Below are positions 8,222 to 8,779 of a stretch of 64,000 nt of DNA, piece after piece. How positions within the stretch are numbered: position 1 is the stretch's first letter; the number at the start of each line of letters is the position of its first letter. The position numbers were made by a program, and so were the translations under genes. Under the pieces are notes generated by a model. The model saw only the letters and a program-made list of their open reading frames with translations, ran no database searches and was not told the DNA's origin. Location: NCBI RefSeq assembly GCF_003334305.1, contig NZ_QOWS01000013.1. One strand, 5' to 3'. The DNA is from Escherichia coli. Lineage in GTDB: Bacteria > Pseudomonadota > Gammaproteobacteria > Enterobacterales > Enterobacteriaceae.

Positions 8222-8779
8222 TTAATTACCCTTCTTCTGTGCCGGGGTCTGGCCTTTGTTGTTTTTATCCTGCAGCTGCGACGGCACCAGAACGGTGGTT
8301 ACGCGCTTGCCTTTGTCGCTGAAAGCCTGCATTTTCTGCTCTTTTACCAGGTAAGTGATCTTATCGCCCTTAATGTTGCTATCGACCTGCTGCAGATAAG
8401 CATTACCCGTCAGAACGACAAAATCTTTTGCCAGTTCGTAGTGCATCTGGGAAGCGTGACCTTCAACGGGTTTACCGTTGTCCTGCATCTGGTAGAACGT
8501 TGCCGGTTTACCGTAGCCGTCAATCACTTCTTTACCTTGTTCGCCGCCCGGACGGGTAACGACCACTTTGTCGGCATTAATTTTGATGGTGCCCTGGGTG
8601 ACGATGACATTACCGGTAAAGGTAACCACGTTGCCTTGCATATCAAGAGATTGCTGGTCCGATTCAATGTGGATCGGCTGATCAGTGTCTCCGGTTACGG
8701 CAAATGCCGGAATGCTGGCGGCCAGAAGTGAGCTGGCAAGCACAAGATTAAGGCTGAGTTTGTTTGTTTTGAATTTCAT
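8222..8779 (-). CDS. lptA: LPS transport periplasmic protein LptA, 185 aa
   Basis: Signal peptide MKFKTNKLSLNLVLASSLLAASIPAFA; start at the internal Met; 32-nt overlap with lptC. Confidence 0.92.
   Translation of the reverse strand: MKFKTNKLSLNLVLASSLLAASIPAFAVTGDTDQPIHIESDQQSLDMQGNVVTFTGNVIVTQGTIKINADKVVVTRPGGEQGKEVIDGYGKPATFYQMQDNGKPVEGHASQMHYELAKDFVVLTGNAYLQQVDSNIKGDKITYLVKEQKMQAFSDKGKRVTTVLVPSQLQDKNNKGQTPAQKKGN

Follow-up and report, generated by a model that had tools for sequence, protein, structure and literature searches.

The conserved lptC/lptA overlap of Escherichia coli and a probable lptA initiation region embedded in lptC

The lptC-lptA locus and the shared nucleotides

LptC, LptA and LptB are essential components of the bridge along which lipopolysaccharide travels to the outer membrane, and are targets for antibiotics. 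Their genes lie in a 64,000-nt stretch of Escherichia coli DNA (contig NZ_QOWS01000013.1; hereafter the window), whose minus strand carries the gene order yrbG-kdsD-kdsC-lptC-lptA-lptB-rpoN-hpf-ptsN (Table 1). The LptA translation scores 368.4 bits against the NCBIfam equivalog model NF008143 (cut-off 234), its residues 1-185 spanning all 184 profile positions, and 172.9 bits against TIGR03002 (cut-off 71.7), a full-length match to the family of the OstA/LptD_N fold (Pfam PF03968). From residue 27 onwards it is identical to PDB entry 2r19, 'Protein yhbN'. LptC is likewise a full-length family member (Pfam PF06835), scoring 364.1 bits against NF008142 (cut-off 230); its match to TIGR04409 (176.7 bits, cut-off 38) covers residues 6-182, the model ending where the lptA ATG begins. 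The N-terminus of LptA, with a lysine-rich n-region (MKFKTNK), a hydrophobic core and the sequence AFA/V, has the predicted layout of a standard Sec signal peptide. The first residue in every PDB LptA chain is 27 or 28, which fits cleavage of the predicted signal peptide, residues 1-27.

Table 1. Features at the lptC-lptA junction (window coordinates)
Feature	Coordinates	Strand	Description	Basis
lptC CDS	8748..9323	-	191 aa; stop TAA at 8750..8748	translation, NF008142, RefSeq
lptA CDS	8222..8779	-	185 aa; ATG at 8779..8777	translation, NF008143, RefSeq
kdsC/lptC ATGA overlap	9320..9323	-	4 nt; control junction in the same operon	ATGA in 78 loci
lptC/lptA overlap	8748..8779	-	32 nt; lptC codons 182-191 and stop; lptA codons 1-10 and 2 nt of codon 11	
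lptA start codon ATG	8777..8779	-	within lptC TAT-GAA (Tyr182-Glu183)	invariant in 80/80 species
LptA predicted signal peptide	8699..8779	-	residues 1-27 (MKFKTNKLSLNLVLASSLLAASIPAFA); first 10 codons within the overlap	translation
24-nt patch	8787..8810	-	nt -31..-8; lptC codons 172-179 (AELIEKVR)	entropy 0.055, the lowest 8-codon window in lptC
Shine-Dalgarno-like AAGG	8792..8795	-	nt -16..-13; 12 nt before the ATG	invariant in the 80-species alignment
Upstream in-frame TTG (-21)	8798..8800	-	rejected alternative lptA start	ORF list
Downstream in-frame GTG	8741..8743	-	lptA codon 13, outside lptC; rejected alternative start	
Candidate sigma-E-type promoter GGAACAA-N16-TCTGA	8840..8867	-	~55-60 nt upstream of the lptA ATG, inside lptC	motif reading

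The 3' end of lptC and the 5' end of lptA share 32 nt, as the sequence-only reading had noted; the overlap is exact in the minus-strand sequence, and the RefSeq boundaries of both genes in a near-identical E. coli chromosome are the same as here. In the lptC frame the junction reads AGA ACA TCC TAT GAA ATT CAA AAC AAA CAA ACT CAG CCT TAA, and in the lptA frame t ATG AAA TTC AAA ACA AAC AAA CTC AGC CTT AAt. The lptA frame lies one base further along than that of lptC, with the ATG beginning on the second base of the Tyr182 codon, and in E. coli the lptC stop codon begins 29 nt after the lptA ATG. Both translations confirm the earlier statement that lptA starts, at 8779, inside the last 10 codons of lptC in a different frame.

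The sequence of the overlap is A-rich, encoding Lys, Thr and Asn in one frame and Gln, Asn, Lys and Thr in the other. Residues 185-191 of LptC are disordered in the crystal structure (PMC2963376). The overlap encodes two low-information segments: the LptC tail (183-191), which lies beyond the conserved β-jellyroll, and the beginning of the LptA signal peptide, made up of its charged n-region and the first of its hydrophobic residues. The double reading is tolerated because both shared protein segments carry little information and the LptA part is predicted to be removed during export.

In the RefSeq annotation of the same ~64-kb region, the co-directional overlaps measure 4, 4, 32, 4, 1, 8, 1, 8, 7 and 43 nt. 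An overlap of 32 nt is uncommon and falls in the long tail of local lengths, yet it is not unique even locally. The 43-nt case, lpoA/yraN (L083:24938-24980, from RefSeq NZ_CP033401, corresponding to ~56.9 kb of the window if the two are collinear), is known from annotation and, like lptC/lptA, is a same-strand overlap of tens of nucleotides between real genes; what is specific to lptC/lptA is that a disordered tail is joined to a signal peptide. Convergent overlaps also occur in the same NZ_CP033401 region, at yhbS/yhbQ (14 nt), yhbP/yhbO (21 nt) and mtgA/yrbL (4 nt). When NZ_CP033401 was projected onto the window at ~16-19 kb, the murA start at 15665 matched and the projected rplU start at 18707 did not; this mismatch indicates that the window strain has an indel relative to NZ_CP033401 there.

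The locus is present throughout the species: a 1.25-kb query around the junction found a match in every one of the 5426 complete E. coli genomes, at no less than 99% identity in 5415. One assembly holds a second lptC-lptA copy on a plasmid-labelled record (5427 places in 5426 genomes). On the plus strand of the window, antisense to lptC, two overlapping terminator-like hairpins with T-runs were observed at 9173-9206, against 0.4 expected from shuffled sequences; they are probably chance matches.

Conservation of the start, the overlap and the upstream patch

We compared the junction across loci from 80 Enterobacteriaceae species, in which LptA is 80-100% and LptC about 70-100% identical to the E. 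coli proteins. The codon aligned with Met1 of E. coli LptA is ATG in every one of the 80 species. The overlap is 32 nt long in 75 species, 20 nt in three and 17 nt in two, the shorter forms stemming from earlier lptC stops. A more distant set was assembled from representatives of LptA clusters at 36-53% identity, which were looked up in their own contigs. As called, the overlap measures 20 nt in Grimontia (Vibrionaceae), 26 nt in Pantoea sp. Aalb, 8 nt in Ca. Providencia siddallii and 29 nt in Aeromonas, where the RefSeq 175-aa form gives 14 nt; in metagenomic relatives it measures 20, 14 and 44 nt, the last becoming 17 nt if an internal ATG is used. All of these distant lengths equal 2 modulo 3, which places the two genes in the same relative frame as in E. 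coli. In each of these taxa, ATGAA can be read as xAT-GAA, spanning adjacent Tyr and Glu, or Asn and Glu, codons of the LptC tail.

Two distant genomes depart from this arrangement. In an AT-rich genome (L085:2440-2520; LptA 43% identical), lptC ends 21 nt before lptA, directly after a run of ten A residues. The early end of lptC there reflects either a true frameshift, the probable case, or a sequencing error in the homopolymer; in the same relative, the ancestral tail ELIQKVKTSYETQN and the ATG within TAT-GAA are still readable in the next frame. In the reduced, ~650-kb genome of Serratia symbiotica (L092/L093), kdsC-lptC-lptB is followed by lptA ~190 nt downstream, without overlap, and the usual order lptC-lptA-lptB is lost. 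Judged by these comparisons, the arrangement of a start within the LptC tail is older than the Enterobacteriaceae, with only the lptC stop having drifted to give overlaps of 8-32 nt. By the same comparative measure, lptC/lptA is a genuine conserved overlapping pair: each of the two frames holds a real gene, and the start of the second is kept across species.

The claim that the lptA signal-peptide codons and the LptC C-terminus are co-constrained was assessed with a synonymous measure: in 70 ungapped Enterobacteriaceae sequences, the entropy of codon usage was taken over those that have the majority residue at a site and was scaled to the degeneracy of the codon. The claim was borne out. Normalised synonymous entropy is 0.276 in the overlap (lptC codons 182-191) versus 0.669 in the rest of the gene (codons 1-171), with a permutation p<1e-5; the contrast is valid within the alignment, the species being related and the permutation p-values ignoring phylogeny. 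Substitutions in the overlap fall mostly at lptC wobble sites, which are second positions of lptA codons, and produce the changes F3S, K4R and T5I in the LptA signal peptide, all conservative or tolerated. In the species alignment, conservation collapses immediately 3' of the lptC stop. Within E. coli, the 68-nt junction (-36..+32) is variant in 3 of 5426 genomes versus 176 for a control 68-mer in mid-lptC and 999 for one in mid-lptA. These patterns indicate that the shared codons are under double constraint.

The most conserved stretch of lptC lies outside the overlap. The 24-nt patch, GCC GAG CTG ATT GAA AAG GTT AGA, shows almost no synonymous variation across the 70 sequences. Even its AGA, a rare codon for Arg, is retained by 69 of them, the remaining one having AAA (Lys), and CGN never occurs. 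Between the patch and the start, codons 180-181 (ACN TCN; nt -7..-2) vary freely, with a normalised entropy of 0.55. Conserved footprints at the neighbouring junctions span about 3-4 codons, at codons -6..-3 for kdsC->lptC and -3..-1 for lptA->lptB, and the patch is about twice as long.

Initiation of lptA translation

AAGG is the only Shine-Dalgarno-like element in the patch, and its best anti-SD duplex, at -3.8 kcal/mol, is weak compared with those of most neighbouring genes. The patch is rich in A and U. Opening positions -20..+15 at the lptA start costs 4.8 kcal/mol, the lowest value among the 20 gene starts tested in the window, and no stable structure was found at -80..+50 (fold z = +0.31 relative to shuffled sequence). 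A hairpin that pairs UUGAA (-21..-17) with UUCAA (+7..+11) around the Shine-Dalgarno element and the AUG in the minimum free energy fold was rejected: its 3' arm varies (TTCAA, TCCAA, TCCAG) with no compensation in the 5' arm. The patch is presumed to form the core of the lptA translation-initiation region, combining a weak Shine-Dalgarno element with an open, A/U-rich platform.

The length of the patch is unusual and is not fully explained by a role in initiation, and the patch could serve some purpose besides or instead of binding ribosomes. One candidate is a dedicated cis-regulatory RNA element, for example a site recognised by a protein or small RNA, a translational enhancer or a standby site. 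In its favour are the freezing of all wobble positions including those of AGA, a length about twice that of the neighbouring footprints, and the fact that no RNA family, structure or published small-RNA interaction accounts for these features: an Rfam search of the region gave no family match down to E = 1, and a literature search found no small-RNA control of lptA. We regard such an element as a rather doubtful prospect.

Transcription also begins inside lptC. Two minor promoters, lptAp1-p2, have been described within lptC upstream of lptA, the first of which needs sigma-E (Benedet et al., PMC4986956). From them lptAB is expressed once upstream transcription into lptC has been turned off, and when an araBp-lptC cassette is repressed they are the only source of lptAB expression (PMC4986956). 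The candidate sigma-E-type motif in Table 1 may be the published lptAp1. Its full form occurs in only 4 of 79 species, since wobble positions of lptC fall within both of its elements. Directly after the motif comes an in-frame ATG of lptC (Met163, 8835-8837). A consensus scan for a sigma-70-like promoter in the junction region found none.

The overlap would disappear if the annotated lptA start were an artefact and translation in fact began downstream of lptC. The only in-frame candidate is the GTG at 8743..8741, which in E. coli stands 5 nt past the lptC stop, but the corresponding codon 13 is start-capable in just 31 of 80 species (GTG in 26, ATG in 5; GTA, GTT, GCC, GTC, ATC, ATT, CTG or GCG in the rest). 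This GTG has no anti-SD match (+1.2 kcal/mol), and starting there would cost the protein the lysine-rich n-region that a Sec signal peptide requires. From the ATG at 8779 onwards, the codons show either no change or conservative substitutions, and the alignment of the NCBIfam LptA model from residue 1 also speaks against a start at codon 13. This candidate is highly improbable, and the start at 8779 stands. A longer overlap, of 53 nt, would result if lptA began at the TTG at 8800..8798, giving a signal peptide that opens with MKRLEHPMKFK. This TTG is in frame, is preceded by TGA, is invariant in the 80 species and has a weak GAG 4 nt upstream; its invariance, however, follows from that of the whole upstream patch. 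In six species an in-frame TGA at -12..-10 separates it from the ATG, and the substitutions seen in nt -9..-1 are confined to lptC wobble positions, where they would impose radical changes on the putative extension (H/P/R/L/A and P/H/L/R/S). An initiation at this TTG can be dismissed with similar firmness.

The sequence-only reading had further taken the overlap as consistent with tight translational coupling, a suggestion that we found unsupported. Under termination-reinitiation, ribosomes would end at the lptC UAA (8750..8748), remain on the mRNA, slip back by ~30 nt and begin again at the lptA AUG, locking LptA output to that of LptC. In bacteria, the efficiency of re-initiation drops with distance, and the usual coupled arrangement is an overlap of 1 or 4 nt, as in the short-overlap coupling of trp operon pairs. 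A same-strand overlap, conserved across species, in an operon that encodes the parts of a single machine would suit such coupling, as would the weakness of the Shine-Dalgarno-like element and its 12-nt distance from the ATG, which make this an overlapping pair of the kind for which coupling is often invoked. But the stop does not sit on or within a few nucleotides of the start: it is 29 nt away in E. coli, and the stop-to-start distance varies (17, 20 or 32 nt in Enterobacteriaceae, 8-29 nt in distant taxa) while the start is unchanged. Nor is there a structure for the upstream ribosome to melt, as unmasking of the start would call for; the lptA initiation region is independently conserved, and its start is the most open of the 20. 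Full-length lptC cannot be translated from transcripts that begin at the promoters inside it, and these transcripts sustain lptAB under lptC depletion (PMC4986956). A literature search returned no report of translational coupling for lptC/lptA, and searches for copy numbers returned nothing usable. Taken together, tight coupling by termination-reinitiation is unlikely. A programmed +1 frameshift at CCU-UAA, which would fuse LptC to LptA, was also considered and rejected, the site having no recognisable shift site or stimulator.

We favour, with a probability of roughly three in four, the reading that the overlap is real, old and documented and that LptA is made mainly by de novo initiation at a site embedded in lptC, as the comparative sequence data suggest. 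In this model, the 30S subunit would bind de novo within the 3' end of lptC, at an initiation region dedicated to lptA that is strongly conserved, unstructured and A/U-rich and carries a weak AAGG ahead of the ATG. This one region would serve the long mRNA from the yrbG promoter as well as the shorter mRNAs that begin within lptC. Ribosomes that complete lptC could raise lptA initiation by re-initiating or lower it by occlusion, without lptA depending on them. Published plasmid and promoter experiments establish that lptA is expressible without translation of lptC in cis; the coupled share on the polycistronic mRNA lies outside their scope.

Relation to the published locus and implications

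The 32-nt overlap has already been stated in print (Benedet et al., PMC4986956), and the present junction agrees with the published description of the E. coli K-12 lptC-lptA (yrbK-yhbN) overlap in the yrbG-lptB locus (Polissi and Dehò groups; PMC4986956) in its genes, its length and its place in an operon. As a finding, the overlap is correct but ordinary, being both published and present in RefSeq. What is new relative to the K-12 description is the species census, the synonymous-site analysis, the rejection of alternative starts and the 24-nt upstream patch.

Like the coupled ATGA/TAATG overlaps, of which kdsC/lptC in the same operon is one, lptC/lptA joins co-directional operon genes, with the downstream start inside the upstream gene. 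It differs from them in that the start precedes the first base of the stop by 29 nt, a distance that varies by lineage. A further difference is that lptA is served by promoters of its own and by a separate conserved initiation region, whereas the kdsC/lptC footprint extends over only 3-4 codons.

The pair has been called a "genetically complex locus", and both genes were deleted together and complemented from plasmids (PMC4986956), because deleting lptC or tagging its C-terminus touches the lptA start and initiation region. Any chromosomal lptC deletion or C-terminal tag hits the same sequences. For experiments on LptA dosage, the patch at 8787..8810 should be kept intact, or else mutated on purpose.

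Our comparison confirms the annotated lptA start and shows the overlap to be ancient. It adds the new point that the strongest nucleotide-level constraint at this junction falls on the 24 nt before the ATG, rather than on the overlap itself. If the patch were indeed a cis-regulatory element, it could set the LptA:LptC ratio or tie LptA synthesis to stress in lipopolysaccharide transport.
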